NCBI GenBank assembly: GCA_008632985.1
Contig: QPGO01000358.1
Coordinates: 1 to 41,461 of the forward strand
Reading direction: 5' to 3'
DNA from: Psammoneis japonica
Lineage: Eukaryota
DNA: 41,461 nt
The notes below the pieces were generated by a model. The model worked only from the letters and a program-made list of their open reading frames with translations. It was not told the DNA's origin and made no database searches. Shown here one piece after another: positions 4,405 through 39,094 of this stretch (the stretch's first letter is position 1; every line of letters begins with the position of its first letter). The position numbers and the translations under genes are program-made.

Positions 4405-4695
4405 GATCGGGAAAGATACTTCTTAAACTTACTTGCATAAACTAATAATAAAGGAATGGGGAGACTTAAGGTTTGATGCTATGTATGAGTATTAGAACAT
4501 TTCAATATCCGTGTAATACAGAGACTCCCTGGTCACTTCGTGAAGCCAGGCGCACCCAATGACCGCAAAACTACTACTCGTGCTACTCTAGGTTCAGAGT
4601 CGCTCGGGCTTTGACCGATCGATCTAGGGCCTTAAGAGAACAGACCAAGATGATGAGTACGGTACGGTCGTGAGTCGTCGTGAATGGTGAGTTTG

Positions 4696-4950
4696 AGTCC
4701 GTTTTCTCCACGCACAAACTGCCGTGTGGATTTTTGTTGCATCCGTTTTCTACGTAAAACTGCCGTGTAGCTTTTGTTTTATAGTTAGACTCTACTACTA
4801 GCTAGAGCTAGAGTAGTAGTTCGTAGAGTAGAGAGTTGTTGCGATCGAGTAAAAATCGAGGATAGTCTGTCTGTATATCCGTTAGTTCACGCGAGTAAAA
4901 ATAGAGGATCGTCTGTCTTTGTCTCCGTTTTGCACGCAAAACTGCCGTGA
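4696..4950. repeat. Cluster of degenerate direct repeats: 3x TCCGTTTT..ACG.A.AACTGCCGTG and 2x ~46-bp GAGTAAAAAT.GAGGAT.GTCTGTCT...TCCGTT
   Basis: AAACTGCCGTG at ~4716, ~4757 and ~4939; tandem ~46-bp units starting at ~4847 and ~4893. Confidence 0.7.
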
Positions 4951-5101
4951 GCTAAAAAATTGCGCGGGTTTTTGTATCTTCGCGCCAACTGGAGAACTCC
5001 ATTTTCAATAATTGTTATGCCAATGGCCACCGGCACCGGCCAATCTATTATACTTGTCACTGCGATTGTTAAACCACCTCTTTGCGTATTTCCCGTTAAT
5101 C

Positions 5102-7819: not shown

Positions 7820-9260
7820 TCAGGAGCAAGTAGTGGGTATTTGGACAAAGAAAGCGCCATGAAAGTTAGGAGCACAAGTAAGAAGAAGCAGTTTGAAACC
7901 GCAGATGAAATTCGAGACGTTTTTCTTACCAAGTTTCGTCACGGAAAAGAGAGACACGGATACTGGAATAATGCACATGCAGTGGTCTAGACAGAGGACG
8001 TTGTAGACTGCCTTCGTGGCTTCTATCCTGGATTTGATTTTGCGTTTCTGTACGATCAAAGTTCGGGACACGCCAAGAAACGACCAGAGTCCTTGAATGT
8101 TAGTGTCGTGAATGGCGGTTTCGGAGGGAGTCAGCCACCAATGCGAGACACGCTACTTACCGAAGAGATGTTTGGACCTTTAATTGACAAGATCGAGGTC
8201 CCTTCCGACGGTGGCTTGAAGGTTGGCGACTATCAAACCTTCACTTTTCCAAAGAATTCGACCGACCCAAGTTTGGACGGTCCAAAGGCTCTCAGCAAGG
8301 AAGAGCGAATTGAAAAGAAGCATCCAAAGCCTTTGCCTCTAAAGCAGGGAAAGAGGCGAAAGAAAGAAGATCTCAAACGAGATTTTGTTGCACGGAAGGT
8401 CATCAGCGACGACAGCAAAATGAAACTAGGCGAGCTCCAGCAACTCGCTCACGAATGTGAACCTCCAATCCCAACACACGAGCCTGCCACCCCAAGAGCA
8501 ACTAAACGACCGCGTACCAAGCCAGAACTCTTCAGTGAATTGCTTGAGAAGGGGTTAATCCGGCCGAATCGCACGCGTAACCTTGAAGAACTGCAGGATG
8601 TTGCTCGGCAAGCAAACATTCCAATCGAGAAAGACTTCGTTCCTATGACTAATAACTGGGATGGCGCCCCAAACAGCATTTTTCAGATATTGTACGAGAC
8701 TGATTGGATAGATCCTGCGAAGAAAGATCAGTATCGGGTCACCGCACCAAAGGAATGGTTAGATGTTGAGGGAAATGTCAAGCCAGAGTACCGAGACTAC
8801 GTACTTACCGATTTACTTGCGCGGCGCCGAGACTTTGCAGATGAGCTAACAGCACTCGAGACACTTGTAAGCAAGATATCAAATGAAGAATGTGCTATCT
8901 CTATCATTTTCTCTCCCAAATATCATTGTGAGATCGCAGGAGAAGGCATTGAACTGTGTTGGGGATTCCTGAAGAAATATTACCGACGAAAGTTCACGGC
9001 TGCGGAGAAGCATCGCAACTTTACCAAGTGTGTTGATGCAGCATTAGCTGCTACAGCTGCTCGAAATGACACTATAAGGTAGTATGCTGGTCATGTTTAT
9101 GGATACATGATGGCTTTTATCGGGCGATTGCGGAGGAACAAGGCGATGACGCGTCGGTGTCCTTCCAGCTTGTGGAGCAATTTCTCCGCCAGCATCAGTG
9201 CCACCGCATTTCTGTCGATCAGGAAGGATCCCTGATCGAAGAGGGCGTGTCTGTAGCATT
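7820..9260 (+). mobile_element. Degenerate IS630/Tc1/mariner-like DDE transposase (pseudogene)
   Basis: One frame reads GYWNNAHAVV*TEDVVDCL...FDFAFLYDQSSGHAKKRPESLN...GGSQPPMRDT...FSPKYHCEIAGEGIELCWGFLKKYYR. Premature stops at 7988-7990 and 9080-9082; frameshifted C-terminus (..QHQCHRISVDQEG). No TIRs found. Confidence 0.75.
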
Positions 9261-11528
9261 GAATAACGAGTAAAACATATTTATGCAAAAATGCATTGTT
9301 AGATAAATGATAGTACACAACAATCGTACATAGTGTCAGTCTCGCGTCAGCTCAACTCACCATCAGGAAACAGGCCCGATACATAGTTGCTTGTATGATT
9401 TTTTGGATGCTTGTTTTGATTCATAATCTGCTTGACCAAAATAGATCAACAATTTCGCTATGAACAACGCAAGTTCTTAGGGTGTATCTTGTGCTTCGTC
9501 TTGGAGCTTGGGGGGGGGGACACAAAAAATGGCAGTCGCGTGTGGAGCGTAGAGCTGCGTCTTCAGTTTGTAGGAGTACTCGTTGACACCCCGTCACCAC
9601 AAATTATGGACTGACGACAACCCTCGGTTGATAAGTTACAAGTCGTTCGCGTCTTTCTCTGTAGATCCGAAGGCCACCAGAAACAAAATTAAGACGCCGC
9701 CTAGATGGGGAAAGATGGAGCCGGAGAATTGAAATTGTTAGTTTGTTTGTCATGCCGATACTGTAAATGCATGATGCATCAATACTGCTTCAAATGTAAA
9801 CATACCTTTCTTTGGCACACAGCCTTAAGAGTTATCTGCACAACATTCTAGCCTCCTCGCTCACATTCCAATCGCATACTCTCCACGTCACCAAGATTTA
9901 CCCCAGTTTTCGGTCCCCGAACGAGGGAGTCCTACTAACCGGCACTCGGCAAGGTCATGGACGTCAATAGCCAACCCAATGCGCATTATGATTGTCATTA
10001 TTCGTGTTATTATCAACTGTAGCTTGCTTGGTTTGGTCCGAAAGGGAGCGTAGGACACGCCACAGCCCCATTCCGACATAAGGAAGAATGTTAATTGAAA
10101 CGAAATGGTGTCGATACCGACACGAAAGTATCACCCATTGTTCGTCCTTGGGGGTGATACATTGCTGAATATCCTCTCTATATGAGTGATGAAGACGACC
10201 ATGTCAAAGAAAATAAGTGAGATACCGAAACAAAAGCGCAATACAATTCGATAGCAACAGAGAGCGATAATGAGTATCGAATCGTGGTGTAAATACAAAA
10301 TCCATTTTTTCATCTTACAATTGGTCGATTACCTTCAAATAAGCAGCATAAGTTGTTTCTATATAATGAAAAAGACTAGTAGATAGCGTTGGTATTGTTG
10401 AAAGGGTCGGCAATAGCCTAACAAGCCGCTCCGATTCTCATGGTGTGTGCTGTTTTGAGTAATGATGCGCACACGTGACTGAATCAGTCCCGACCAACGT
10501 TATCTATGAGAGATAGTGCAGTGGACTCTCATCGTGTTGAACTTTCACCGTAGATTTCTACCGGTACAGTAGGTACTGTAGGCCTGCTGTATGTACTGTA
10601 CGTACGTACCGTGCGTACCGGTACGTCTTTCTTAGGGCTTCGAAGTTCTTTTTGATTCAGCCGACTAAACACTTTCTACGTAGATTTTGTACTGGCGCGA
10701 CGTCGTCAGAGGCCATCAGGAGTCGAACGCAACGCCGCAATGCAATTCCTACAACAGCCTGCTGCTGTGCGTCGTCGTCTTCACGTTGCTTGTCCCAAGA
10801 GGACCCGCCCATCATTAATCTTTCGGGAACAGTTAGTTCAGAAGCCTTGTGAGTGTATCGTTGGTGGCATCGTTATGTACTGATGCAATGGGTCGAAGCC
10901 GCGGCATGTATGCTGCACTTCGCGATTTTTCGCGAGGACGCGCAGAGTCATTTCGCCGCAATTCGTTCTGAAGTCTATCAACCGTAATTTCCTTTCAAGC
11001 GTGGAGAGAAAGGATACCCCGACAGCTCTGCTGTGTGTATGTGTGGGGAGGGGGTTGCGCTCTTGCGTTCGTGCTCTTGTCGTCATGGCCATCCTCGATA
11101 CGTCGCCTCTCTTGAGCGGAAGGTTCCTGCATCGCTGGTACACGTCGCCGTAGAATCTACGCAGATAGCATCTTTTTTGTTGCATTCAGATTTTCAAAGC
11201 TGTACACGCAAGGAATTGATGACGACTGCATTTCCGCTCCGAGCAGACAGCTCGTTATGAATTTTTTTTATTGTGACCTATTGTGTCTTTTTGCATAAGT
11301 ATTTGCTTCCTGCATATGCCCCTTCACTGGTCACAATTCCAAGGGTGTCATTCTTTTGGGCTATTCCCGTTTTTCGCCATCAATTCTGTTGGGCACGATG
11401 TGCTTTTTGTCAGGTCTTCTCACCGTCGTCCTGTGTCTTTCTGTCTCACCGAATATGAATGTTCTGGCATGATGCAAAGTGCAGACGTCTTCGATTTTTA
11501 ATCCATCCGCGCGGCGCTCCCAGTGGAA

Positions 11529-13187: not shown

Positions 13188-14144
13188 CTAATCCTTTGCG
13201 ACTCTCTTTTTTTCCTCTTGTGTATACGCTACGCCAGATCGATTTGAGTCGGTACCACCTGATCGCCATTGAATATATTCGGCTACGCTCATGCGTTCCT
13301 CCTTTTGGTCGCTTTTCGATTGAAATAGTAGAGTCGCAACGTGTGGATCCGGATCAGCAAAAAATGCAATTGAAATCCGTGCTTTCTGGACCGCCTTTAG
13401 CAACTCTATTGATTGATTTGTGTCTTTCGAAGCTGGTCCGGCTACTCGATGAAGGGTTGCCAGCAAGGAACCACGGGTCCAATCACTTAGCAAGGAACCT
13501 ACATTGACCACCAGGGCGCCGGCAACAAAGGGTACGGGTTTCCATTCATGTTCATGCCACAATTCCAGTCCTGATACGCCGTCCGTAGAAAGCAAGGTGA
13601 CGGTGCCATAATCCGAGTGCGCTTTACAACGATTACCAGTTTCTGCTGTACCAGGTGGATCTAGAATAGCGGTAGGAAGCATTAGACGTAAACGTCCAAG
13701 CACAGCGTGCGAATCAATGTGTGTTCACGACTTACATTGCAGTAATCTCATGCAACTGTTGTTCTCGCTGTGTAGCTTTGAAAAGTAATCTGGAGCTTCC
13801 ATGTCCAATCCAACTGCGATGCATTCTAATATCGACATTTTCGCCTTTTCCAATGCTTGGTAATACTCGCCCAGATCCTGCGACAAACTCAGCGACACTT
13901 CATGAGATTCCAACATGCAGTATCTCTTGGGATCCACGGGATGATGCTCAATGATTTTGTTCTCGGAGGCAAAGAACTCTTCTGCGGCCTTTAGGGCCTT
14001 TGTTTGCAATTCAGACGAAACCAATGGCGTGGTGACGAGAGCAAAACCGCTAGTCTGGAATGCCGCAACGAGAGACTCGGATACTTCCTTGGACGGCGGT
14101 GATTCGGGGAGATGGATCAAGGGGACAAAGGCCGATCCTGACAT
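13188..14144 (-). CDS. 2-oxoglutarate/Fe(II) dioxygenase (IPNS/DIOX-like); exons 14144-13736 and 13660-13188
   Basis: A 75-bp GTAAG..TTCTAG intron restores MRLLQYPPG. HSDYG (HxD), GLE, VVNVGSLLSDWT, ATLHRV and RISIAFF (RxS) motifs present. Confidence 0.92.
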
Positions 14145-14524
14145 GCTTACACGTTCAAATTCCCTTTCTTCTCTCCTAAAGTTCTGATTAGAATACCCTG
14201 TGTGTCTTAAAAATCCCCCAAGCCCTGAAAAGGATGCAGCAGTAGCACCTTTTTGCCGTTGCCTTGCCACAACAGAAGATCGCTCCTAGTCACTTGTCGT
14301 GCCTGCCTGCGAGCCGAAGCCACCAAACCAAAACGCAGGCAAGACGACATTTGGCGCACGGTTTTTTTTTTTTGCGCGCCAAATTTTACCAATCCGAAGG
14401 CACGGAATCCGGACAGCTGTTTTCCGCCACGTCAAAGCAACTTTCGAAAAATCTCCTTCCGACATTCTCCTGCTGTCGTTGCAACACATGGGATCGACAG
14501 TACGAGTAAAAGTTGCATCTGTAC

Positions 14525-17500
14525 ATGTGTCAGCAATGAGGAGGGGATTCAGCCAACACAGTGCTTGCACTGAGAGTGCCTTGTGGGAATGCACTTGGCG
14601 GGCTGCAACTGGCTTTGTTGCTCCAACCAGCCCAGTCAACAAGATCACATCACAGCATGCAACTGGATTTTGCTGTGAAATTTCCACATACCACCACAGC
14701 AGGAAGAAGCCTCGTCATCTCTGCTGCTGTGCCCCCTGAGAACAAAGTGTGTGTGGCCTTTTGAGTCAAAAGCAGAGCAGAGAGTGGGTGGCGCCAGAGT
14801 CAGAAAATGAGACACCATTGTGATCCAAGTGGTGGTGGCAGCCCCAAGACAGCATTTTGGTCCAGGTGAGTGAGAGGGCCAAATGGAATGATGGTTGGGC
14901 CAGAATTCGGTGGTGACGCTGGCCTTCTTGCGCCATTGAGTCGCTCAGATGCTTGCCACAAGCCAACCCAAGAAGCCTGATCTCAAGAATGCTTTGAACT
15001 GGAGCACCACACAACTCTGTGGAAGCCAAAATCAAGCTGCAGTGAGGACCAAATTCACTCATCAATGCAGTGTCTTGGTGTTGGATGGTGTCATGATGGG
15101 CTGCTCAAGTTGTGCCAAGCATGGCCCAGCATTGGGTGATGATGTCGTGGCTGTTCAATTGTGCCAAGCATGATGATTTTGCCTGTCAAGCAACAGCTGT
15201 GCACACCCCACTCAGCCACACATGAATGCCAGTCCCAAACCAGTCTTGGTCATTGGCAGTGGTGACAATGGCCTCCCATGAGAGATTGTCAAATGAAAAA
15301 TGTGACTCTGTGTCTGCCACCCTTTGAGAGCCAAAGCTCCATTGGTGTCCTTGCAATGGACTCATCTGACCCCATTTGACCTGCACTTGTCTTGTTTGAA
15401 AGTCTCTTGCACAAGGCCACATGCATCAGTCTCAAAAAGGGTTGCGCTGTCTGCGCACACTGGGTGAGTGCATGTGGCTTCACGTGAGAATCTATTTTGT
15501 TCTGCCCCTCTTCATTCAGCCCATGTTCTGCACCTGCACCAATGCCAGGTGTGCTTTTGCAGCCATTCCAACTTGTCTGTCAGGTTAAATTGGCTTCATT
15601 CTCACTGCAAAGAGACATTTGAGAGGCTTCACTTGCATGAGGCAGCCTTTGTCTTGCCCACCTTTGCTCAGCATGAAATTTTTCTTGATGAGTGGGTCAC
15701 CAAGGAATTAGGCTGGATGCACAAAGTGTTTGTGCTGGCTCATTTTGCATTTAATTAAGAAGAGCTCATGGTGTGTGTGGCACCTGAGCCAGAACATTGC
15801 CATGCAAGCAACATCTTCAGCGACCCTTGATGCTGACATGTTTGCTGCTTGGCACAAAGGTCATTTTGAATTGCTGAAAATGCTCGCCATTTTGATGACA
15901 CAAAAAGGTGTCATGCTTGGGGTGTGTCAAAACCAGCTCCATTGCTCATTGCTGTCTTTTGTTGCCAGTGTCATTTTGCCAAGAAGAGCAGGGTGGTGCA
16001 AGAACACAAATTTGGGCAGGCAGAATTGAGAGCTGCAGGTTGTCACTGCACTGTTTTGCTGCAAGCACCAAAGTCAGGACAGCACCATTTATGAAGACAT
16101 CTGTCTGTTCCCCAGGTCTGGTGCTTTCTGCACCAGAAAGACACAGCAGCATCAGCAACCTTTCCAATGAGTGAAATGCTTGTCCAAATTCTGGGCCACC
16201 CAGCTGGTGCCTGGAGAGCAGAAACCTGGCTGTGGCATTGTGATGAAGTCAGCCAAAAAAATTCAGAGAGGCAATGGTGCAAGTGTGCAGGTGCTGGTGC
16301 TGAAAATCAGCTCTGAGTTTGTGTGCAAGTGAAAAAATGCTGGTGCACAGCAATGACAAACTCATCTAAAGGCATTTTACAAAACTCTGATCATTGTGAA
16401 CCTCAACAAATGAAACAAAATGAAAGTCCCACCTGGTTTCAGTTCTCTCCACCAACTGATTCAAACTGTTGCACATCTCAACTTTTTCTTTCAGAAATGA
16501 CTCAAAACAAAACTCCATGACATGAGCCTGAGTTCAAGCATCAATTTCATCTGAGTTCTCCTTCATGAACAGTTTTGAAAATGAGGGCATCAGAAATCAA
16601 CTTGGTTCATTGTGTGATGCCAACGCCACCTTGAATTTGATCATGTGACATGGTCTTGGAAACTGTCACTCACAGAGTGCTGCCATTTGTGCCCCAATTT
16701 TGCTGAAACAGAGCTGTTTCACAACACACATCAAACAAAGAATGAACCAAAGCATCTTGCACCTGGCCAGTTGCATCTGCAACAATGGACTCATCAGTGA
16801 TCCTCCCCAGTCTGGCACTTTGGCAGCCTCCAAGTTGTCACAAGACTCCATCATCCAAGTCACACCCAGATCATTGTAAAAAAAACTTGAAGTGACCTGA
16901 GCTCATTTGAAAGGTGGTCATTGCTCTCATCAGCTCACATGTGTTGTCCAACCTCACATGACAGAATGAGCTGGGGCATGGTTGTGTCATCAAAGTGAAC
17001 CCTTGACCATTTTTCCCTGAATGTCCCATTCAATGTGCTGCCTTTTCTTGAACCTGGGCATTTTTGGCTCTTTCATTGAAGTCTTCTTTGCATGGTCCTC
17101 ATTGCAACAGCAAGACAGGAGAGCATCCTGGGGAGTTGCTGGCAAATGTGAACCCCATCACATGCACACAAATGCAAAAGGCCAGCGCTGCTCTCAACAT
17201 GAGATGCAAGAGAGGCCCCGCAAGGTTGCTGACATTGCAACTCTTTGAAGCCAGGCAAACACTGAACAAGACAACAGCACTTGTCCTGTCAACATGCTTG
17301 AACAATGAAACAACATGCACGTTGAGCTCACATGCTTGGTGTGGTTGCTTGGATGTAAAAATGGCAAGCTTTATGCACTTCAACAATGAGGACTTGAACT
17401 TGACAAGAAACATGGACTTTGCTCCAGATGAGAGACCCAGTGATGGACAATCAGATTGAGCTCAAAACAGGGGTTGAAAAGCTTTGCTGCTTGACTGACA

Positions 17501-18400
17501 AACAGACATCCGCCAGTTTTGTGTGTGCTCCTCTTGAGCCAAACAGAAAGCCACTGGGAATGTGTGATGGCAGCCATGTGGAGATCTTGTGGCAACTGCA
17601 TGTGCTCTTGCAGTGGATCATGACTCCAGTCAAGTCACAGTGGCCAACATGATGATCATGATGTTCGCAAAGTAAGATGATGAGAGAAGAGGCAGCATGG
17701 TGATGAGAGCAATGGATGACTGTGTGTTGCTTGCATCACCAAAAGCAAAATTGTGACAGCTTCAGTTGATGCCATTTGAAGGGTGCTTGGACACAGTCAT
17801 CATCAGTGCAAAAACATGCTGAGTGCATGACACCAGCCCCAGCTCTGCTCACATTTTTCAAGAGCAAAAAGATCGCATCAGCTCCACTTCACCACACTTG
17901 CATTGGGGTGGACTGAGGACATGTGTCAGCCAAAACCTTTCAGAAACATCATGGTTGCCTTTGTCATTTTTGTGCTTTTACCAATGCTGGCCAATGCTGG
18001 CCAATGTTTGTGTGGGATGTGGAGCAGAGGTTGTAAAAGCAAGCATCCTCTGTTCTCAGAGGTTCGTTTCTTCTGCCATGCACTCTCTCTTGTCATTGGG
18101 ACAGTTGCCTCACAATTCTGTCACAGGAGCTGCACTGTTCTGTGGTTGAATTGTGTCAATGTGTTGAAACCAGTTGGCTGCCACTGTTGCCATGGCTGGG
18201 GCAGTTGGAGCTGCGTTTGGAGTTTGAAGCTGGTGCAGCCAGAGAAGGCAGGGTGCTCACTTACCCCCAGCTCCTGAGCCCACCCCTCACTGAAGCCCCA
18301 ATGTTGGGACCTGAGCCCAGAGCCAGAAGCAAAGAAGTGGCTGAGATGGGACAGTTGAGACCAACTTGAAACTGTGGTGGTCGAGGCCAGAGAGCGCTCG
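14525..18400. other. CpG- and TpA-depleted, TpG/CpA-rich domain (hypermutated relic; underlying element not identified)
   Basis: No TA dinucleotide seen from ~14691 to 15492; neither CG nor TA from 15148 to 15444. ORF translations are rich in C/H/W/M/Q and nearly lack Y. Confidence 0.9.
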
Positions 18401-18512
18401 CTCCCAGCATGCTGCTCCACTTCTTCGCGCGTGTTCTTGCGCGAATTGCCCCCAAAATCAGAGCCATGATGGATGATGGCCATGAGCATGATGACGAAGA
18501 AGGAACTAGACT

Positions 18513-19679
18513 ATGGCACCAACACGACGATCCAATTCACCCTTCACTCAGTTGAATGTCCATGAACATGAGTCTCTGACGAGGAGTGGAACAAGACAAA
18601 ACAGCGACAATGAAGAACGACAGGAAATTTCAGACTGGAGACCAATGGCATGCTGCTTGGGAATTGCTGCGTTCTCCATGGCAATGATGGCGTTTCTGGT
18701 TGGTTTTTACGCTCTCATCAGACATTCACGTGGTCCTATGTATTCAACCACTCGTGAACAGAAACATCATGGAATGAAATGGTTTCGACATAGCAGCCTG
18801 ACCACCGGTGGCCATCAGACCCACGGGAACGCTCGTCCGATTTCAGTTCACAACATGCATCATGTACCCGAGAGTGAAGAGATGAATGCGAATGCAGAAC
18901 TGAGCAAGGACGGCGAGAATTAATTACTGGGATACTCAACAACTCAATATAATGAAGAGAGAAAGAAACGTGCATACCTTAACTTAGCACGAGATGATGT
19001 ATCGAATGTTTCCGAAAAGAACGAGGCGAATGTTGAGAATTCTGGCGGTCCAGACCGATCTGTAACCTGTAACGAGATAATGAAAAGAACAGCCCACATC
19101 AAAAAGAAACTTGCACAACTTCTCCTTATTCTATAAACCACTGATGCATACAGATGTGAAAGCCTCGCTTCTTCACCGAAGCGTGAACAACTTGCTAGGG
19201 AAGGCGTGGAGTAGCTATCCGACATCATAAAAAAAACTTGGGCAGACAGCCAAACGATTAACGGGCACATCTCGTTGAATGTAACTTTTGCGCGAAACAC
19301 AGCTACCTTACAGGCCTGCGCCGATGAAACAGACTGACCGAAAAGAAAAAAGGCTCGTATACTCTTGTCTGTGCTGTGCATTGAAAAAACAGGCGCTTTT
19401 GTAACTCTCAGGAAACACGAACAGAGGGGCAGAAGTCACATCTTGTCTCTTCAAAAGAAGAGAAATGGTAGGAAACTTGCGTCGGAAAAAGGTGTGTACG
19501 GAAAAGCTAACGTCTGTCCCGAGAGAAGCAATCGAAAACTGAAAGCAATTCTGGCAACACGAAGCGCAGCGTACGCGCCTCTACTCGAGTCGCAGCTGCC
19601 ACAACAATCCATACATACAAAGAGAGGAAGCCTCCAACACCCCAATGAAAAATGGGCATTTCTGAAAGTTGAAAAATGA
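18513..19679 (+). pseudogene. Possible decayed ORF (one predicted TM helix, basic C-terminal part)
   Basis: ORFs 18513-18923 and 19365-19679 share a frame that has only four internal stops (18921, ~19134, ~19212, ~19335). Confidence 0.35.
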
Positions 19680-23734: not shown

Positions 23735-24427
23735 TCACGACGGAATCAACTCTTCGAAGACGATCTCTCTCAACTCGTCCATTTCATCCGTCTGTTCTCC
23801 CGATATGACGACATGCCATACTCTTCGAAAGCCCTCTTGTTGCTGCTCCGGAAGCTTCCAATCGTGCTTCATGAATCCCATCACCTTGGATGCTTCGTGA
23901 GGCTGAATCGTTGGATGATCTCGTCGAGACTTGCATCGATTCAGACAAATATGCTGTGGCACGTCCAAAATTAGCAAGTCCACGGGGCACTTCAGTTCGC
24001 TGCCGAGTTTCAGAAATGGTTTGCGATGGTCGGGTCCAGCGTGGCACCGATCCACAATGGGGCATCTGCCTCCTTGAATTTCTCGAGTTGCGGCTTTGAT
24101 ACAAGCTTTGCGACTACCGAGATCATCTTGGTTGACCCGTACAAACTTGTGAGGCAACGTCTTTGCTAGTTGGGTAGCCAAGGTAGATTTACCAGAGCCC
24201 GGCAAGCCCATGAGTAACAAGAGAAAAGGAGTCTCGGTCGTTCCATCCATTCCTTTTGGCAGTTGCAAGTTGATTAGCCAGTCGGGTGGAGGAGAGACCT
24301 GATTCTGATTATTCTTCTTCTTTTTCTCGGGACGACGCCGTGTTTGCACATTAGTCCATTCGGAGTCTTGATCATCTTTGGGGTTGCTTTCCGCCATCTC
24401 CGATCCTTCTCTGCCCGACGCTGTCAT
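23735..24427 (-). CDS. P-loop kinase (AAA_33 / polynucleotide-kinase-like)
   Basis: LLLMGLPGSGKST, RVNQDDLGSRKAC, IVDRCH, RCKSRRDHPTI, EGF. Confidence 0.88.
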   Translation of the reverse strand: MTASGREGSEMAESNPKDDQDSEWTNVQTRRRPEKKKKNNQNQVSPPPDWLINLQLPKGMDGTTETPFLLLLMGLPGSGKSTLATQLAKTLPHKFVRVNQDDLGSRKACIKAATREIQGGRCPIVDRCHAGPDHRKPFLKLGSELKCPVDLLILDVPQHICLNRCKSRRDHPTIQPHEASKVMGFMKHDWKLPEQQQEGFRRVWHVVISGEQTDEMDELREIVFEELIPS

Positions 24428-26881
24428 TGTGGGCTTACCTTTTGCCTTCTGTGTTCTGAATTACAGACCTCCCAAGCCGGGAGTGTGTTCTGTGCTCTGG
24501 CGCGGTCAGTGCTCATTGTTCGCGACGCAGCGCAGTGATCAGGAATAATCGGACAAACTCACAGCTATCGCAAAGAGCGAAAGATTGCCAGGGGTGAGAA
24601 AGGTTTACTGTATGTAGGGGTGAGCGTTGGGATGCTTGCAAAGTTTGCTGGAGTCCAGTGGAGTCGTCGTCAAAGCTATCAGTACGGGGTGTGCTACTGG
24701 ACTTCAAAAAGACTGTGAGCAACTATTCGTTTGCACGAGGGACGATGGATAAGCCATTTCGAGCTACAGTGCTACCAGCTACTACCACCACCTTTAAGCA
24801 GCTGTTAACGAATCGTTCGAAAACGGTGGAGACAGGGTAACTCAGTCTCTACTTACTGTGGATAACAAATCAATCGATTGCTTGAAATGAAATGAAATGA
24901 AATGAAATGAATAGAAGTAGGGCCCTGCTAGTTGCTGCAAAGCGGGACTCAAGTTTTAAATCGCGGACTCCCATTCGTGCATCGAGTTCAGTCGTGTGTT
25001 AGCTAGGGCCCTATGACATTGGTCAGTAATAGCTGAGGGAGAGAATCATCGTGCATATTCCATCAATGACACTTCTCCGTTGGTCATGACGTGTTCCGGC
25101 TGGAATCGTCATCACCTCTAAAGAGTTGTTTTTTTTTATGAAGCGGTCAGCCGAGTTGGAAGGTCAATGCACATGCCAAGCCATACCCTAGCTGCCATTG
25201 CCTCGGATGTTCGCGTTCACCTTCTCAAGAAACGATGAACCAGCGGCTTTCGGTTCGTAGCTTCCACTGTGGCTTCTATTTTTTTATGACAGGGAAAGAA
25301 CACGGGATGCAAATCAGGACTTGCGTCTTCCGAGAAAAGGCATTGAATCACATCTCCATCAGGAGTCAGCTGCATGTAAATACGGTCCTCTTCCTCCGCA
25401 TACGAATCGTCTTCGTCAGAATCACCGTCGTCTTCTTCTCCTTCGTCGTCGGCGTAAAAATACGAACTATCCATTTCTTGGTCCATGCTGCTCTGTAATT
25501 CAAAGTCCAAACTGCTTTCTTCCACGCTTGTGGGCGTCCCGTTGAGCTTCTGTATTGGAGATATTGGGCTTGAAGTGACACTGCTATTCAACTCTCTAGA
25601 CGACGACAATTTCGTTGGCGTGGTAGCTTCATTGCGAAGTTTGTCGTTCATTCTCGCCTTTTCCTGTCGAGTCAAAAAGGGGCTGGTAGACACGAGACAA
25701 CGCGCCTTGAGAAGGTTTCTTATGGGAGAAGAACTGCCATCGTTATCGCCATCGCCTTCGTGATGTGGTGAGGGTGTGACAATAAGTGGCGGGGGGTGTA
25801 CCCGACGCTGCTGCGTATGGCGAGGTGTCGTGGGTGAAGCCGTCGCTTGACGAGTTTCCTCGTCCAATGCGATTTCCGTAATCACCGTTGTCCCATAATC
25901 ATTGTGATCGTCTTCCTCTGAAAACACAGGACTAGCCGGCTTGCTAGACCCGCGCTCGACAACCTTGTCGCGAGGTGTCGATGGGAGAGAGCTAGCAGAG
26001 TCGTTGGCTTGCTTTGGGCTCGAGCTCAATGGTCTGCCAGTCAAAACAACACCTTTGTTCTTTGACTGCTTGAGGCTGCTGACGGGACTACACGCTTTAC
26101 TGTTGTTTTCATCCATGAACAGTTCAGAACTCTCTTCACCATGAATGACGAGACTCGTATCCGTGTCGGGTCGACAAAGGGTAACTTCGCCTGTAGCAGA
26201 ATAACAGTGAAGGAAAAGAAGAAGAATGGTGAGCAGTTGGATTCCGATGAAAGACACGACACATTCCTTAGAGAATTCATGCCTCTACCTTCTTCCGTCA
26301 ACTGCAAGCAAAAGCTCGGTTTCGACTCTTCTCGCGACTGCTTTGAGCCTCCCTTTTCTTTTCGCTTTTTCTTCTTCTTTTTTGACTTCTTCTTTGGTCG
26401 CTTCTTCAACGCACCAGCCACGGAGGAACCGATAAACGGCAGCATCTTTTCAATCCCCTTCTTTTCTTTCAATAGTTCGTCATCATGGAAACCCGCTTGC
26501 TGAACAGGACACTTGACGACACTTCCAGCTACAAGTAGAATAAGAAGAAAGACGACTTTTATAAATGTGTTCGCGTTCACAAAACGTCATGTTTGAACAA
26601 AACGATATGTTTTCGAAGAGCTAGTCGTCAAAGTGTGTGTTGTCGTTTTTCTTACCTGGTGTCAATTGTAAGCAGTACTTTTGTGGAAGACTCATTTCTT
26701 CATACGCTCGATCTTCGTCGGGGCTTTCTTCTGCCGAAGTATCAATGGCTAATGGCTGGCTCGAAATGATTTGGGGCGATGATGGTGGCGACATTGTTGA
26801 CACCCGGGTTTGACGTCGAACCGGAGAAGGAGACTGCTCCTCCATACTCGTCTCAAACTCTACAAAGCTGCTATTCTTCAT
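24166..26881 (+). repeat. Copy 1 of ~2.7-kb direct duplication
   Basis: Near-identical to 33963-36608, from CTAGTTGGGTAGCC to GCTATTCTTCAT, with scattered SNPs and small indels. Confidence 0.95.
25217..26881 (-). CDS. Hypothetical 3-exon protein, copy 1 (exons 26881-26656, 26528-26289, 26190-25217); lacks native upstream region and first 5 codons
   Basis: Two phase-1 GT-AG introns keep the frame open. The repeat boundary falls exactly at the second ATG (MKNSSF). Confidence 0.7.
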
Positions 26882-31065: not shown

Positions 31066-31448
31066 GGCCGGGTTCGGACAAATTGACCAGGAGTTTATGG
31101 TGGGGGTCGATTTGTCCACTATCGATTTTAAGAACACATAAACATGGGGTGGACAAATCTACGAGGAGTTTATGGTGGGGGTCGATTTGTCCACTATCGA
31201 TTTTAAGAACACATAAACATGGGGTGGACAAATTGACCAGGAGTTTATGGTGGGGGTCGATTTGTCCACTATCGATTTTAAGAACACATAAACATGGGGT
31301 GGACAAATCGACCAGGAGTTTATGGTGGGGGTCGATTTGTCCACTATCGATTTTAAGAACACATAAACATGGGGTCGATTTGTCCACTGTGGAATTTTCT
31401 TAAGTACGAATACACACAAATTCCTGGTCGATTTGTCCGAACCCGGCC
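31066..31448. mobile_element. MITE/foldback-like element with 27-bp TIRs and four internal 75-bp tandem units
   Basis: Left GGCCGGGTTCGGACAAATTGACCAGGA versus right TCCTGGTCGATTTGTCCGAACCCGGCC (1 mismatch). Units start at 31076, 31151, 31226 and 31301. No clean TSD. Confidence 0.8.
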
Positions 31449-33962: not shown

Positions 33963-34215
33963 CTAGTTGGGTAGCCAAGGTAGATTTACCAGAGCCCGGC
34001 AAGCCCATGAGTAACAAGAGAAAAGGAGCCTCGGTCGTTCCATCTGTTCCTTTTGGCAGTTGCAAGTTGATTAGCCAGCCGGGTGGAGGAGAGTCCTGAT
34101 TCTTCTTCTTTTTCTCGGGACGACGCCGTGTTTGCACATTAGTCCATTCGGAGTCTTGATCATCTTTGGGGTTGCTTTCCGCCATCTCCGATCCTTCTCT
34201 GCCCGACGCTGTCAT
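33943..34215 (-). pseudogene. Truncated duplicate of the P-loop kinase (ends just after Walker A)
   Basis: MTASGREG...GLPGSGKSTLATQL, then foreign VSATAE*. Confidence 0.85.
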
Positions 34216-36608
34216 AGTGGGCTTACATTTTGCCTTCTGTGCTCTGGCGCGGTCAGTGCTCATCTGTTCGCGACGCAGTCGATCAGGAATCGGACAAACT
34301 CACAGCTATCTGTATCGCAAAGAGCGAAAGATTGCCAGGGGTGAGTAAGGTTTACTGTATGTAGGGGTGAGCGTTGGGATGCTTGCAAAGTTTGCTGGAG
34401 TCCAGTGGAGTCGTCGTCAAAGCTATCAGTACGGGGTGTGCTACTGGACTTCAAAAAGACTGTGAGCAACTATTCGTTTGCACGAGGGACGATGGATAAG
34501 CCATTTCGAGCTACAGTACTACGGTACCAGCTACTACCACCACCTTCAAGCAGCTGTTAACGAATCGTTCGAAAACGGTGGAGACAGGGTAACTCAGTCT
34601 CTACTTACTGTGGATAACAAATCAATCGATTGCTTGAAATGAAATGAAATGAAATGAATAGAAGTAGGGCCCTATTTACTGTACAAAGCGGGACTCAAGT
34701 TTTAAATCGCGGACTCCCATTCGTGCATCGAGTTCAGTCGTGTATTAGCTATTGGTCAGCAATAGCTGAGGGAGAGAATCATCGTGCATATTCCAATGAC
34801 ACTTCTCCGTTGGTCATGACGTGTTCCGGTTGGAATCGTCATCACCTCTAAAGAGTTGTTTTCTGATGAAGCGGTCAGCCGAGTTGGAAGGTCAATGCAC
34901 ATGCCAAGCCATACCCTAGCTGCCATTGCCTCGGATGTTCGCGTTCACCTTCTCAAGAAACGATGAACCAGCGGCTTTCGGTTCGTAGCTTCCACTGTGG
35001 CTTCTATTTTTTTATGACAGGGAAAGAACACGGGATGCAAATCAGGACTTGCGTCTTCCGAGAAAAGGCATTGAATCACATCTCCATCAGGAGTCAGCTG
35101 CATGTAAATACGGTCCTCTTCCTCCGCATACGAATCGTCTTCGTCAAAATCACCGTCGTCTTCTTCTCCTTCGTCGTCGGCGTAAAAATACGAACTATCC
35201 ATTTCTTGGTCCATGCTGCTCTGTAATTCAAAGTCCAAACTGCTTTCTTCCACGCTTGTGGGCGTCCCGTTGAGCTTCTGTATTGGAGATATTGGGCTTG
35301 AAGTGACACTGCTATTCAACTCTCTAGACGACGACAATTTGGTTGGCGTCATAGCTTCATTGCGAAGTTTGTCGTTCATTCTCGCCTTTTCCTGTCGAGT
35401 CAAAAAGGGGCTGGTAGACACGAGACAACGCGCCTTGAGAAGGTTTCTTATGGGAGAAGAACTGCCATCGCTATCGCCATCGCCTTCGTGATGTGGTGAG
35501 GGTGTGACAATAAGTGGCGGGGGGTGTACCCGACGCTGCTGCGTATGGCGAGGTGTCGTGGGTGAAGCCGTCGCTTGACGAGTTTCCTCGTCCAATGCGA
35601 TTTCCGTAATCACCGTTGTCCCATAATCATTGTGATCGTCTTCCTCTGAAAACACAGGACTAGCCGGCTTGCTAGACCCGTGCTCGACAACCTTGTCGCG
35701 AGGTGTCGATGGGAGAGAGCTAGCAGAGTCGTTGGCTTGCTTTGGGCTCGAGCTCAATGGTCTACCAGTCAAAACAACACCTTTGTTCTTTGACTGCTTG
35801 AGGCTACTGACGGGACTACACGCTTTACTGTTGGTTTCATCCATAAACAGTTCAGAACTCTCTTCACCATGAATGACGAGACTCGTATCCGTGTCGGGTC
35901 GACAAAGGGCAACTTCGCCTGTAGTAGAATAACATTGAAGGAAAAGAAGAAGAATGGTGAGCAGTTGGATTCCGATGAAAGACACGACACATTCCTTAGA
36001 GAATTCATGCTCCTACCTTCTTCCGTCAACTGCAAGCAAAAGCTCGGTTTCGACTCTTCTCGCGACTGCTTTGAGCCTCCCTTTTCTTTTCGCTTTTTCT
36101 TCTTCTTTTTTGACTTCTTCTTTGGTCGCTTCTTCAACGCACCAGCCACGGAGGAACCGATAAACGGCAGCATCTTTTCAATTCCCTTCTTTTCTTTCAA
36201 TAGTTCGTCATCATGGAAACCCGCTTGCTGAACAGGACACTTGACGACACTTCCAGCTACAAGTAGAATAAGAAGAAAGACGACTTTTATAAATGTGTTC
36301 GCGTTCACAAAACGGCATGTTTGAACAAAACGGCATGTTTCGAAGAGCTAGTCGTAAAAGTGTGTGTTGTCGTTTTTCTTACCTGGTGTCAATTGTAAGC
36401 AGTACTTTTGTGGAAGACTCATTTCTTCATACGCTCGACCTTCGTCGGGGCTTTCTTCTGCCGAAGTATCAATGGCTAATGGCTGGCTCGAAATGATTTG
36501 GGGCGATGATGGTGGCGACATTGTTGACACCCGGGTTTGACGTCGAACCGGAGAAGGAGACTGCTCCTCCATACTCGTCTCAAACTCTACAAAGCTGCTA
36601 TTCTTCAT
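33963..36608 (+). repeat. Copy 2 of ~2.7-kb direct duplication
   Basis: Near-identical to 24166-26881. Confidence 0.95.
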
Positions 36609-36623: not shown

Positions 36624-37029
36624 GATTGTAAAGACAAGGGAAGGTGCGAATCGCTCAAGAATACACCATGTACAACTTAGGGCTACATGTGCCAAGCGTT
36701 GACCCCGGAATGGTAAATAATGGCATCATCAACGAAACAGTGGGCGGGAAGAGGGGGGGCGCGCGGGAGGCGGAAGCGAGACACATGAAGAGTTTTTGTC
36801 GATAATGCTCTACTTATGAATATTATCGCCTATGTCAATGATTAACTCTAAAGTATATATACTTTTGAATCGATCTGGAGTTCGGCAAGACATGGATGCC
36901 TTATAAATATAAGCATGACTGTCACTAACGGTTTCAACGGCTCAACGGCTACATCTCACACCATAATACAGAACAGAAAGGCACACACATCACACAAAAA
37001 AACGAGGACCAACAAGCAGCGGAAGTGCT

Positions 37030-38880
37030 CTGTCTGCATTGACAATTAATCTTTCTTTCTGTTGCACGAACACCGCCCCGTGCAGCCAACCCTGCCAGCA
37101 AATTCCCGTGAGTTTTCTTGCTGGGAAAGTGACAACATTTCCACAGATGAGGCACACATGCTGGAGTGCAGTTGTTTTGAGATGACCCAGTGCAGAATTC
37201 CACAAGATGTGCAATTGTTTTCTGCAGTTTCAATGGATCAACAGCTGCATTGTGCACACAAAGGCATGCACAACACAGACAGAAAGCAAGGGCCAATCAG
37301 CAGAAGTGCTCTGTCTGCGTGCTGGCAAGAAGAGAGGAAGAGTCTTTCTTTCTGCTGTTCCATGCCCGCCGCTGGCTGGCCAACCCTGTCAGAGCAAATT
37401 TCCACAAGGTTTGGTGCTGTGGAAAGTGACAACATGTCCACAGAGGCACACCTGCTTGGGCCCAGCCCTGTGCACCCCCTCTCAAAGAGCAAGACCTGGC
37501 CACAATGAAATGGAGGAAAGTGCCCAGGGGTCTGATGGTGCAGGCTCGAAGGTGAGTTGTCAAATGCAGCAAATCACATCAACATGTGGTGACCAAACAC
37601 AAGGTGCAAGGCACTCTCCACCCACCTCTCAGCTCAAGGTGCTTGGTTGTGTTCCTTGGGTGCACAGATCCAAACAAGGACAACCTGCTTGGGCTTTTCT
37701 GCTGCAGACCTTCCAGTGGGTGTGCAACGGAGCAGAGAGGGAGCTCTTTTCTTGTGCAGTTGTTGTTGTTGTTGTCATTGTTGTTGTTTTGACATGTTGT
37801 TGTTGCCGTGGCATTCTTTGCATGTCCCCGCATCATGGCAGAAGCAGGTGACTGAATGACATCATTTCCAGTTGGCTGTGCCACCCCAGAGAGAAACAAA
37901 AAAAATGGTCAACTGCCAGCACTTTTGCACTGACATGGTGCACAAATGAGCTGCAGCACACCTCCCACATGCTCTGAGTGTGAAACATGTCAGAAGCAAG
38001 ACAAAGAAAGACCAAATTTGAGCTGTGAGCCAGAAAGCTACGTTGAAAATGGATGAAATTGCCCCCTGCCCCATGCACAGACATGACAGGGGAGTGCACC
38101 ACAAAGTGATGTGGAGAGAAACCACAGCACCCTGCAACAGGCTGGACCAGGCCAACATTGTTGAAGCACCTGTGCCAGAAGCGCTGAAATGTTGGGGCCA
38201 ATGTTGTCAAGCAAGCATGGTGGCTGTGTGGAGGTTGTGCTGAATTCATTGCCCAGTTTTTGTCAAGTGATGTAGGATGACTGTGACCTTAAAATAAAAC
38301 ACTTTTGATTGCAGTCCATCACATGGGAAATTTTCATGGTGGGACACAAGCATCAGACAGCTGGAAACATGATGCACTCATTTTCAGCACAGGACGTGGG
38401 ACAAGGATGATTTGTGAAGTGACACACTCACAGAGACTAAACTTGCTGCACACAAGCTGTTGCAACCACTGCTGGTGTACAAGCAAGCCTGGTGCAACTG
38501 CCACTTCGAACACAGCAGTGCCACATCAGGTGCAGCACATCAAGCCAAGTGGAAAAATGTTTTCAGGAGACAGAACGCAGAAGCTCATCCAGGAAAACAA
38601 CAAGGAAGAAAACATTGAGAGCAAGGAGTGCCAACACAATATTTTGGACAGCTGGTGCTTTTAAAGAAGAACAAAGATGTGTGCAACCCTGAAGTGCTCT
38701 TCACTTTGCTGAGCTGGGTGATGTGTTGACATGGCTGTGTGTCAGCTGCAAGTGACCCACACCACAAGGACTGCATGTTCAAACAACTGCCCCCCAAAGT
38801 CATGCCTTTGGCCAGCAGCTCCACCGGTGGTAAAGAGTGCCAGCAGCTTGGCAGCTGGCTGAAGACGTCCTCCCCCAGTG
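37030..38880. other. Second CpG- and TpA-depleted domain with internal diverged ~280-bp repeat
   Basis: Very few CG/TA. GAAGTGCTCTGTCTGC at ~37022 and ~37303; GGAAAGTGACAACAT at ~37124 and ~37421. Confidence 0.85.
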
Positions 38881-39094
38881 CAGTTTCGCGAGCAGTAAAA
38901 AAATGTAAAAGTGAAAGAGCTCGTCACGAACCCCGTGCGCGCACTCACGCATCATCTCGCACCACGACCCAGTTTTGGTCCACGACTCAGATTTGGACCA
39001 TGCACGACAACGCGAACGGCGCACGTCTGGAGATCGCGGGGACGTGTCTTCTACAATTCTAATACAACTCAAAACAAAAGGCTAAGACCACAAG

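Follow-up and report, generated by a model that had tools for sequence, protein, structure and literature searches.

Contig QPGO01000358.1 of Psammoneis japonica (assembly GCA_008632985.1) raises the question of how a non-coding stretch between two genes came to be almost free of both CpG and TpA steps. The whole 41,461 nt analysed are referred to below as the window. A sequence-only reading had presumed a diatom host, which a URO-D exon bears out, a search with the AAA protein having given only a 48% match, and had proposed an unrecognised, repeat-directed hypermutation system. In the interval 14525-18400, CG occurs 25 times (observed/expected, o/e, 0.11), TA 16 times (0.06), TG 470 times (1.93) and CA 433 times (1.80), against window-wide o/e values of 0.88, 0.52, 1.25 and 1.22, respectively. 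Likelihood segmentation delimits the affected stretch; its left margin is listed separately:

14526..18380, no strand: domain A, a CpG- and TpA-purged non-coding stretch of 3.86 kb.
14526..14950, no strand: left margin of domain A, with shallower CpG loss, complete TpA loss and dense haplotype differences.

Domain A contains 22 CG, 16 TA, 470 TG and 432 CA steps. Its 38 CG and TA steps compare with 342-445 (mean 383) in all 511 other 3855-bp slices, a deficit with a binomial P of ~1e-118. Over 1-kb windows of the domain, rho ranges from 0.03 to 0.09 for TA, from 0.04 to 0.17 for CG and from 1.86 to 1.90 for TG+CA. The purge of CpG and TpA is real and extreme. The stretches of ~800 bp without TA and of ~300 bp without CG or TA that had been described earlier are present as gaps of 804 bp (14689-15493) and 299 bp (15146-15445). 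The borders, said to be abrupt, are sharp for CG at 14505 and 18380; on the left, 14 CGs lie within 14355-14503 and the next ones only at 14599 and 14713. In the left margin, CG o/e is 0.24 (7 CG) as compared with 0.08 in the domain core, and one TA is found.

A stretch of the same kind, absent from the earlier reading, lies near the other end of the window and has an old repeat across its left border:

37081..38820, no strand: domain B, a 1.74-kb stretch of domain A's kind, delimited by segmentation.
37013..37456, plus strand: old tandem duplication with a period of ~281-297 bp, spanning the left border of domain B (blastn and alignment).

Domain B has 13 CG, 8 TA, 204 TG and 211 CA steps (CG+TA = 21, P ~1e-50), and nowhere else in the window does a run without TA reach the 992 bp seen at this domain (37047-38039). 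Its two 1-kb windows show rho TA of 0.02 and 0.14 and rho TG+CA of 1.88 and 1.97. The tandem copies share an 81-base blastn match (37085-37162 and 37379-37456) that is 80% identical; when they are aligned, CG/CA exchanges are seen to go either way, and one CGTG/CACA column block appears.

The total of pyrimidine-purine (YpR) steps is nearly constant, at 0.244 in domain A, 0.251 in domain B and 0.240 elsewhere, so that removal of CG and TA forces TG+CA upward. The strong TG/CA excess reported earlier is therefore correct without being an independent observation. Loss of CG lowers the GC content and loss of TA raises it; the two roughly cancel, and GC remains unchanged (0.479 in domain A, 0.493 in domain B and 0.481 in the rest of the window). 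More than 90% of the CG steps and of the TA steps count as converted in both domains. The remaining TAs prefer the TTA/TAA context, as had been noticed before (18 of 24 versus 562 of 1431 elsewhere; Fisher p 5e-4). TG and CA occur in equal numbers and in random order, which indicates that both DNA strands were hit at palindromic sites: the ratio is 470/432 in domain A with a runs z of -0.68 and 204/211 in domain B with z -2.2, and values of -2.3 and -2.4 are obtained for the ordinary flanks. By these counts and the runs test, the proposed funnelling of both palindromic YpR steps into TG/CA is supported on both strands.

Each of the two domains occupies the gap between two divergent genes. The following flanks adjoin them:

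14305..14505, no strand: flank rich in CpG and poor in TpA that separates domain A from the 2OG-Fe(II) oxygenase gene on its left (minus strand).
18381..18580, no strand: right flank of domain A, running into a 136-aa ORF (18513-18923, plus strand).
38825..39025, no strand: CpG-rich flank between domain B and an AAA/winged-helix ATPase gene (39095-41461, plus strand; Pfam).

The left gene was assigned to the 2OG-Fe(II) oxygenases by Pfam, and a spliced contig extends in it to 14186. CG and TA numbers are 18 (o/e 1.43) and 2 (0.16) in the first of these flanks, 11 (0.81) and 2 (0.18) in the second, and 19 (1.18) and 3 (0.33) in the third. Three of the four 200-bp domain flanks thus combine a TA o/e of 0.16-0.33 with a CG o/e of 0.81-1.43. 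Segmentation ends domain A at 18380 on CG alone and at 18707 on TA alone; the first CG appears at 18382, and TA stays scarce until ~18707. It appears that the TpA process extends past the CpG process by a few hundred bases. A metagenome scan with the left-flank gene gave two loci at 37% identity, and no 500-bp window of these two loci has a CG or TA o/e below 0.25.

Coding, repeat, RNA and mobile-element identities were sought in both domains. Read-through six-frame translations of domains A and B matched no Pfam family in any of the 12 frames (E<=0.1). Periodicity and similarity were tested in the purine/pyrimidine (R/Y) alphabet, which transitions preserve. In this and in the four-letter alphabet, codon periodicity stayed at noise level in all 15 domain windows except for one value of 3.2. 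The suggested recovery of reading frames by reverting TG/CA in silico is not supported, given the absent R/Y period-3 and the 12 frames free of Pfam matches. No LTR or TIR signal was found in domain A or B, and the window contains neither Rfam matches nor tRNAs. When A and B were compared with the window by blastn, only self matches and the 81-bp repeat inside B came up. The longest R/Y words that A and B share with the window measure 21-26, as compared with 21-28 in 10 shuffles. Repeat search and TRF yielded in the domains no more than short pairs that look like chance, a repeat of 10 bp x2.6 and a run of (GTT)n, and the longest inverted repeats are 16-33 nt with 72-94% complementarity. It is possible that the domains are of foreign (viral or transposon) origin and have degraded past recognition. 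The contigs of run X2 look RNA-like, one of them leaving out 75 bases (CT..AC) of the left gene. They extend over the two flanking genes and match the domain only in short mismatched pieces, an observation that is neutral as to silence.

Contigs of a public DNA run, which may be the source of the assembly itself, allow the haplotypes to be compared. One contig of 2993 bases is identical to 14962-17954 (0 differences); the contigs that flank it, 3827 and 4331 bases long, have full depth and are unbranched. Half-depth contigs cover 14792-14950 (~160 bp) with 14 listed differences, 13 of them transitions; four are CG<->TG/CA changes and none is a clean TA change, TA being nearly exhausted there. 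Inside domain A, another contig leaves out a long interval:

15016..17924, no strand: probable presence/absence polymorphism inside domain A, 2909 bases skipped by one DNA contig.

The skipping contig joins 15015 to 17925 via a single other letter at a depth of 36.4; the contig carrying the stretch has a depth of 35.6 and the flanks ~54. Absence of the interval from the other haplotype is probable but short of proven, since the shorter side of the joint measures only 30 letters. In a partly matching contig at 17169-17194, two CA<->TG double swaps, each of two adjacent letters, occur among the 8 listed differences. Double swaps of this kind between related copies, to which the CGTG/CACA block of the domain B tandem copies is added, are predicted by independent resolution of an ancestral TA or CG. 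Among the loose 30-letter ends of partly matching DNA contigs, four of five lack CG and TA, which points to further domains of the A and B kind elsewhere in the genome.

An internal control is provided by a segmental duplication within the window:

24166..26881, no strand: copy 1 of the segmental duplication, 2.7 kb, unpurged, with ordinary CG and TA o/e.
33963..36608, no strand: second copy of this duplication, its end lying ~470 bp short of domain B.

The copies lie 9.8 kb apart and are 96.7% identical over 2408 bases (copy 1 versus 34235-36608); the proteins encoded there are low-complexity and contain no Pfam family. At 24248-24249, one CA<->TG double swap is present. Isolated transitions number 16, of which eight are TA<->TG/CA (null 0.20, p 0.008) and one is CG<->TG/CA (null 0.25). 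A TA<->TG/CA bias is accordingly present even in ordinary duplicated DNA of this genome, and CG<->TG/CA is not over-represented. Seven sites have TG in copy 1 and TA in copy 2, four have TA in copy 1 and CA in copy 2, and one has the reverse; among the isolated sites these numbers fall to 4/3/1, so strand coordination in the duplication is only hinted at.

The observations are best explained, and this we consider probable, by two context-specific transition processes that acted on both strands, nearly to saturation, in silenced non-coding intergenic DNA of the diatom nucleus. The composition, the borders, the strand symmetry, the lack of coding or repeat hallmarks, the mostly transitional haplotype divergence and the CA<->TG double swaps are observed; the direction of change, the methylated and silenced state of the DNA and the enzymes are inferred. 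CpG would be converted to TpG/CpA through deamination of 5-methylcytosine in methylated silent DNA. In diatoms, the consulted part of PMC12344493 describes 5-methylcytosine as limited to transposable elements and silent DNA and as set by DNMT5. TpA would be converted to TpG/CpA by a TpA-targeted A:T>G:C hypermutation, most plausibly carried out by an adenine deaminase acting on DNA. Both processes would be restricted to the space that the CpG-rich promoter regions of the flanking genes, which are transcribed divergently, leave between them. The ancestor of the domains may itself have had few CG and TA steps, since the observed changes are unpolarised. Some results count against two processes of this kind. 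Simulated CG and TA conversion of the flanks reproduces the secondary dinucleotide shifts of the domains with r 0.12 (7 classes), the flanks being mostly coding and hence a poor reference. The haplotype sites lack an enrichment in CG changes and any clean TA change, and viral or transposon identity is missing. In the NTGN contexts, conversion of TA only fits best and added CG conversion brings no gain, again relative to a coding-flank reference.

The closest known parallel is the chlorarachniophyte Bigelowiella natans, a rhizarian. According to the text of a preprint, two integrated viral regions gained 231 de novo mutations; 230 of these are A>G/T>C, and all those are at TpA (bioRxiv 10.64898/2026.01.13.699255). 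The B. natans genome is described there as having 124 clusters poor in TpA and rich in CpA+TpG (Mettrop et al., bioRxiv 10.64898/2026.01.13.699255, April 2026). The TpA-specific A:T>G:C process proposed earlier for the present DNA thus has a natural precedent in the B. natans mutation-accumulation lines. Clusters are defined in the preprint as three or more consecutive 1-kb windows in which rho TA is <=0.43 and rho CA+TG is >=1.52; domain A has four such windows, and domain B comprises two windows only. As in the B. natans text, TpA is changed to TpG/CpA on either strand, on a kilobase scale and within sharp bounds, giving low rho TpA and high rho CpA+TpG. The target is silent in both cases, though here presumably so, and in B. 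natans the NCLDV region is single-copy. Unlike B. natans, the host here is a diatom, i.e., a stramenopile, and rho TA falls to 0.02-0.14 as compared with 0.45 stated for the NCLDV region. CpG is also lost here, while the text of the preprint mentions neither CpG nor diatoms (figures S8-S11 may plot CpG). The B. natans targets are described as foreign DNA (integrated virus, virophage, transposon), and viral or transposon coding remnants are missing here; de novo mutations were seen there and none here. The consulted passages of the Phaeodactylum tricornutum mutation-accumulation paper report no hotspot of this kind, which also speaks against the preferred reading.

The CG half resembles 5-methyl-CpG decay of the vertebrate type and of diatom transposable elements methylated by DNMT5, since CG becomes TG/CA, and the CpG-rich promoter flanks adjoin a CpG-poor block in the manner of CpG islands (0.08 in the core of A versus 0.81-1.43 in the flanks). 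The loss is at least as deep as in bulk vertebrate DNA. Unlike vertebrate-type depletion, it affects only two short blocks without recognisable transposable-element identity, and the surroundings are CpG-normal (o/e ~1.0). Hyper-editing of double-stranded RNA by ADAR likewise changes A to G after a preceding U/T (5' U preference). Fixed by retro-copying, it would mark one strand and does not fit here, TG and CA being equal and mixed and long inverted repeats missing. Joint under-representation of CpG and UpA is known from RNA viruses and cytoplasmic mRNA (e.g., PMC3829696), where it is modest and attributed to selection on expressed RNA; the DNA studied here, in contrast, is non-coding, has no RNA contig match and shows o/e values below 0.15.

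The two losses could belong to one coupled system, in which a single enzyme attacks both YpR steps or cytosine methylation or heterochromatin brings in a TpA mutator. The single enzyme might be a DNA deaminase of the ADAT2 type, active on both A and C, or an oxidase of the TET/JBP type that acts on 5-methylpyrimidines (T in TpA, 5-methylcytosine in CpG), the latter suggested by general knowledge. The CG and TA footprints agree within ~20-330 bp at all four borders and the losses are about equally deep; ADAT2 enzymes editing both A and C in DNA are cited in the text of bioRxiv 10.64898/2026.01.13.699255. However, TA is still depleted in CpG-rich flanks with normal CG, the left 425 bp of domain A are fully stripped of TA with only partial CG loss, and the unpurged duplication is enriched in the TA class and not in the CG class. 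These three facts suggest separable processes, and a coupled system is regarded as unlikely. Of a broader version, a chromatin-targeted hypermutation defence of diatoms that erases CpG and TpA in silenced DNA as part of a widespread SAR-algal system mechanistically coupled to cytosine methylation, by one enzyme for both steps, whether an A/C deaminase or a 5-methylpyrimidine oxidase, or by a deaminase recruited by 5-methylcytosine or heterochromatin, we would say that it is conceivable but doubtful. Alternatively, the composition was not made in place: the DNA was inserted already poor in CG and TA or is kept so by selection, for example as a spacer or insulator between divergent promoters that is free of TATA-like and CG-core binding sites. 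The position of both domains between divergent genes, ending near promoters, would suit this, as would the unpolarised changes and the poor fit of the conversion simulations. The GC content of the domains nevertheless equals that of the host, ~2.9 kb of domain A appear dispensable in the other haplotype, haplotype divergence is fast and almost entirely transitional, and the CA<->TG double swaps imply CG or TA ancestors. We know of no source genome with a CG o/e of 0.1 and a TA o/e of 0.06. An origin of this sort is considered improbable.

Old unconstrained DNA might also reach such a composition without any targeting, once a context bias acting throughout the genome has come to its neutral equilibrium there, selection holding back the remainder of the window. 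The whole window is indeed TA-poor (o/e 0.52) and TG/CA-rich (1.22-1.25), and TA<->TG/CA changes dominate the transitions of the ordinary duplication. Yet other stretches without long ORFs (e.g., 4501-5000 and 9001-11000) have TA o/e of 0.7-1.0 and CG o/e of 0.9-1.3, the borders are sharp to tens of bases, and the single CG<->TG/CA change among 16 in the duplication indicates that CpG is not generally hypermutable; we find this explanation quite unlikely. A defence that mutates duplicated DNA, as in the repeat-induced point mutation (RIP) of ascomycetes, was the mechanism preferred by the sequence-only reading. Like the present case, RIP hypermutates silenced DNA locally and by transitions only, within sharp borders, and has a proposed role in genome defence. 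Short pieces of domain A match other DNA contigs at 85-95%, with unmatched ends that are also free of CG and TA, so that the domains may derive from an old dispersed repeat family; domain B also contains its old tandem duplication. The repeat-directed part of the claim is nevertheless not supported: RIP needs duplicated DNA, and the 2.7-kb, 96.7%-identical duplication is unpurged; A and B resemble neither each other nor anything else in the window, even when written as R/Y. In B. natans, by the text of the preprint, the hypermutated NCLDV region is single-copy. Classical RIP, moreover, turns CpA into TpA and raises TpA instead of destroying it, whereas TpA o/e is 0.06 here. A RIP-like origin is very unlikely. 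An artefact of sequencing, base calling or assembly in modified DNA is hardly credible. Heavy base modification is generally known to cause systematic miscalls on some platforms; against this, De Bruijn contigs, built on data that may be the assembly's own, return 14962-17954 with 0 differences, join both flanks and show haplotype bubbles of half depth.

Two transition processes in silenced DNA therefore stay the preferred reading, and the word "unrecognised" applies to it in part. The TpA half is known from the 2026 preprint; the lineage and the accompanying loss of CpG are new. No report of joint CpG and TpA loss in a diatom was found in the literature covered, which includes a minority of the subscription journals. 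Targeted TpA hypermutation is so far known directly only from B. natans. If the process is the same in P. japonica, targeted A:T>G:C hypermutation of silent DNA would occur in two very distant algal lineages. One of these being the ecologically dominant diatoms, this would favour an ancient defence of eukaryotes by genome editing over a peculiarity confined to a single lineage. That CpG is lost together with TpA would connect the process with DNA methylation or heterochromatin; the preprint leaves this connection unexamined, and it offers a direct handle for experiments. Near-full conversion can also serve as a simple compositional marker, since regions of this type would show up in any algal genome searched for values below 0.2 of both rho CG and rho TA. 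Transgenes that insert into such domains or next to them are predicted to become mutated at TA and CG.

A recount of positions 14525-18400 gave 25 CG (observed/expected ratio, o/e, 0.11), 16 TA (0.06), 470 TG (1.93) and 433 CA (1.80) dinucleotides, the window-wide ratios being 0.88, 0.52, 1.25 and 1.22, respectively. One gap of 804 bp (14689-15493) is free of TA and another of 299 bp (15146-15445) contains neither CG nor TA, so that the composition described in the sequence-only reading was reproduced together with both gaps. Likelihood segmentation places the limits of this region, domain A, at 14526-18380, with 38 CG+TA steps inside versus a range of 342-445 (mean 383) across the window's 511 remaining slices of that length (3855 bp; binomial P ~1e-118). 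A second region of this kind, domain B, had been missed in the sequence-only reading; at 992 bp, its longest stretch lacking TA exceeds any other in the window. Each domain occupies the whole gap between two divergent genes.

Main features of the window
14526-18380: domain A, limits from likelihood segmentation, 38 CG+TA steps; 2OG-Fe(II) oxygenase gene (minus strand) at left, 136-aa ORF (plus strand) at right
37081-38820: domain B, 21 CG+TA steps, P ~1e-50; duplicated acidic-protein gene (minus strand) at left, AAA gene (plus strand) at right
13661-13735, minus strand: intron in the 2OG-Fe(II) oxygenase gene, 75 bases skipped by a contig of run X2; its CT..AC ends are GT..AG on the minus strand
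24166-26881 / 33963-36608: segmental duplication of 2.7 kb, 96.7% identity over 2408 bases, copies 9.8 kb apart

In 1-kb windows of both domains, the o/e ratios are 0.02-0.14 for TA, 0.04-0.17 for CG and 1.86-1.97 for TG+CA. The pyrimidine-purine step total is 0.244 in A and 0.251 in B versus 0.240 elsewhere; since it is nearly constant, the TG/CA excess is arithmetically forced and provides no separate evidence. Mononucleotide GC is likewise unaltered (0.479 and 0.493 versus 0.481 elsewhere). The footprints of the two losses differ slightly. Segmentation by CG only gives 14505-18380, and the left border is marked by 14 CGs within 14355-14503, the next ones occurring only at 14599 and 14713. 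Over the left 425 bp of domain A the loss of TA is full (one left) and that of CG is partial (o/e 0.24 versus 0.08 in the core). In the 200-bp flanks of both domains CpG is normal or high (o/e 0.81-1.43), TA is poor in three of the four (0.16-0.33), and TA-only segmentation overshoots the right-hand CG borders by 327 bp (A) and 225 bp (B). The sharpest TA contrast of the window lies between domain B and the segment 36780-36960 directly to its left. This segment is strongly TA-rich; it contains TATA-like words and, at 36856, the palindrome TATATA, and presumably serves the minus-strand gene as promoter. Ordinary sequence outside the domains has an o/e of about 0.5-0.6 for TA, 1.2 for TG/CA and 1.0 for CpG; TA is near normal (0.97-0.98) in some places lacking long ORFs (4501-5000, 10501-11000).

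Eukaryotic genes with introns are present in the window (URO-D, SAICAR synthetase, PTPA, LMF1, RRM, RING, ankyrin, ARM, trypsin-like, 2OG-Fe(II) oxygenase, AAA/winged-helix). At 70-83% identity, the URO-D exon matches the 120 proteins listed, and the organism-named ones among these are all from diatoms (Cylindrotheca, Craspedostauros, Fragilariopsis, Nitzschia, Amphora, Helicotheca, Chaetoceros). On protein similarity the host is a diatom, and the exon search found no very close sequenced relative of it in the database used. The spliced contig of the oxygenase gene extends to 14186; the intron skip suggests that X2, a run labelled 'DNA?', is in truth RNA-derived. Just left of domain A, a haplotype bubble at 14228-14390 shows exactly half depth (28.2 and 28.0) and 18 gapped positions, the gaps surrounding a T-run and a GC-rich stretch. 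It marks the oxygenase promoter region as heterozygous and rich in indels.

In the public DNA run X1, 95% of the sampled window words are present, and heterozygous bubbles have about half the depth of the flanks (54). Over 14962-17954 (2993 bases) the X1 contigs are identical to the window, and they overlap contigs of both flanks, which argues against a base-calling artefact, X1 being possibly the assembly's own source, with its platform not on record, and hence not an independent confirmation. One X1 contig (depth 36.4) links 15015 directly to 17925 with one letter between, and the contig carrying 15016-17924 has a depth of 35.6. About 2.9 kb of domain A are therefore probably missing from the other haplotype, the short side of the joint being 30 letters only.

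TG and CA number 470 and 432 in domain A, where they are randomly interspersed (runs z -0.68), and 204 and 211 in domain B (runs z -2.2; ordinary flanks -2.3 and -2.4). Equal and randomly mixed counts imply that both DNA strands were affected site by site, and they oppose an origin by one-strand RNA editing followed by retro-copying. The residual TAs are mostly in TTA/TAA (18/24 versus 562/1431 elsewhere, p 5e-4) and the residual CGs in GCG/CGC (22/35 versus 824/2086, p 0.008); these contexts may be protected or may be places where new TA and CG arise. Transitions account for 13 of the 14 listed haplotype differences within about 160 bp in the left part of A, four of the 14 being CG<->TG/CA and none a clean TA change. 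The flanking contigs of 3.8 and 4.3 kb show no branching, a contrast that suggests an excess of change which is local and specific to transitions. Copies of common ancestry are separated by CA<->TG double transitions at neighbouring bases, as expected where an ancestral TA or CG turned into TG on one side and CA on the other: two are found among eight listed differences between 17169-17194 and a partly matching contig, one in the segmental duplication (24248-24249), and a CGTG/CACA block in the old tandem pair at B's left margin. Of five 30-letter loose ends on DNA contigs that match in part, four lack CG and TA, with about 5% expected for ordinary sequence, which implies more such domains in the genome, some with short homologous pieces of A.

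Transitions leave the purine/pyrimidine (R/Y) pattern intact, and a recently coding ancestor should keep its codon periodicity in this alphabet. No such periodicity was found in 14 of 15 domain windows (period-3 signal-to-noise 0.0-1.3; one window at 3.2), with values up to 14.3 in flanking exons, and the 12 read-through frames of both domains gave no Pfam family at E<=0.1. The idea that ORFs could be recovered by reverting TG/CA thus finds no support. Searches of the domains for LTRs, TIRs, meaningful tandem arrays, Rfam families and tRNAs were negative. By blastn, A and B have no similarity to each other or to the remaining window, and in the R/Y-collapsed comparison the longest shared words were 21-26 versus 21-28 in 10 shuffles. 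A degenerate (GTT)n microsatellite (37759-37805, 15 copies, 74% matches) lies in domain B; domain A contains, at 17981-18006, a 2.6-copy repeat of CCAATGCTGG.

The copies of the segmental duplication have ordinary CG and TA levels, so a duplicate of such size and similarity is insufficient to trigger the purge. Sixteen of its 25 isolated mismatches are transitions, including eight TA<->TG/CA (null 0.20, p 0.008) and one CG<->TG/CA (null 0.25); the ordinary DNA of this genome therefore also favours TA-centred exchange, and outside the domains CpG shows no hypermutability. The TA<->TG/CA changes appear strand-coordinated per copy (7/4/1 at all sites, 4/3/1 at isolated sites), which could reflect a mild form of TpA editing or change in the opposite sense. 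Both copies carry an acidic low-complexity 346-aa ORF with eight amino-acid differences. A stretch between ORFs, ordinary in composition, contains two tandem repeats, one with four copies of 75 bp (31076-31375, 96% matches) and one with two copies of 102 bp (30557-30761, 92%).

A parallel has been described in the chlorarachniophyte Bigelowiella natans: according to the main text, two integrated viral regions received 231 of the 302 nuclear point mutations of mutation-accumulation lines, of which 230 were A>G or T>C, each of the 230 at TpA, at a rate of about 6e-7 per site per generation (bioRxiv 10.64898/2026.01.13.699255, April 2026). The same text reports 124 clusters of TpA-poor, CpA+TpG-rich 1-kb windows in that genome and proposes an ADAT2-like deaminase; it does not contain 'CpG', 'diatom' or 'stramenopile'. 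The diatom domains share the depletion of TpA, putatively by the same A:T>G:C-type change, but belong to a new major lineage, are depleted much more deeply and have lost CpG alongside. In diatoms, 5mC is described as limited to TEs and silent DNA via DNMT5 (PMC12344493, in part). In the passages searched, a P. tricornutum mutation-accumulation paper describes dinucleotide context effects without a comparable hotspot. The full-text literature covered, mostly outside subscription journals, holds no joint purging of CpG and TpA and no diatom TpA hypermutation.

The composition and borders of the domains, their strand symmetry, the lack of any coding or repeat signature and the predominance of transitions among the differences are, on balance, most economically read as those of silenced non-coding blocks, which would be limited by the active promoters of the adjoining genes. 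Within them, CpG would have been lost by deamination of 5mC and TpA by a B. natans-type A:T>G:C change, both to near-saturation. Simulated CG and TA conversion of the flanking sequence, which is mostly coding and so a poor reference, did not reproduce the secondary dinucleotide shifts of the domains (r 0.12), and for NTGN contexts TA-only conversion fitted best, with no gain from CG conversion. The mechanism proposed in the sequence-only reading is supported in part: its second, TpA-directed transition process holds up well, a parallel having since appeared for another alga. Its repeat-directed character is not supported: the 2.7-kb, 96.7% identical duplication is unpurged, and A and B are unique in the window, also in R/Y.

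A single enzyme acting on both steps is unlikely: the CG and TA footprints do not quite coincide, which, like the pattern in the unpurged duplication, speaks for two processes that can be separated. It is similarly doubtful that already purged sequence was imported or the purged state selected. An untargeted neutral equilibrium appears improbable, and triggering by repeats, opposed by the ordinary CG and TA of the duplication, is more improbable still. An artefact, at odds with the exact X1 match even if X1 is the assembly's own source, is hardly credible. The observation itself is confirmed and now covers two domains; with silenced blocks as the preferred reading, the finding would represent a variant of a very recently described hypermutation in a major lineage new to it.
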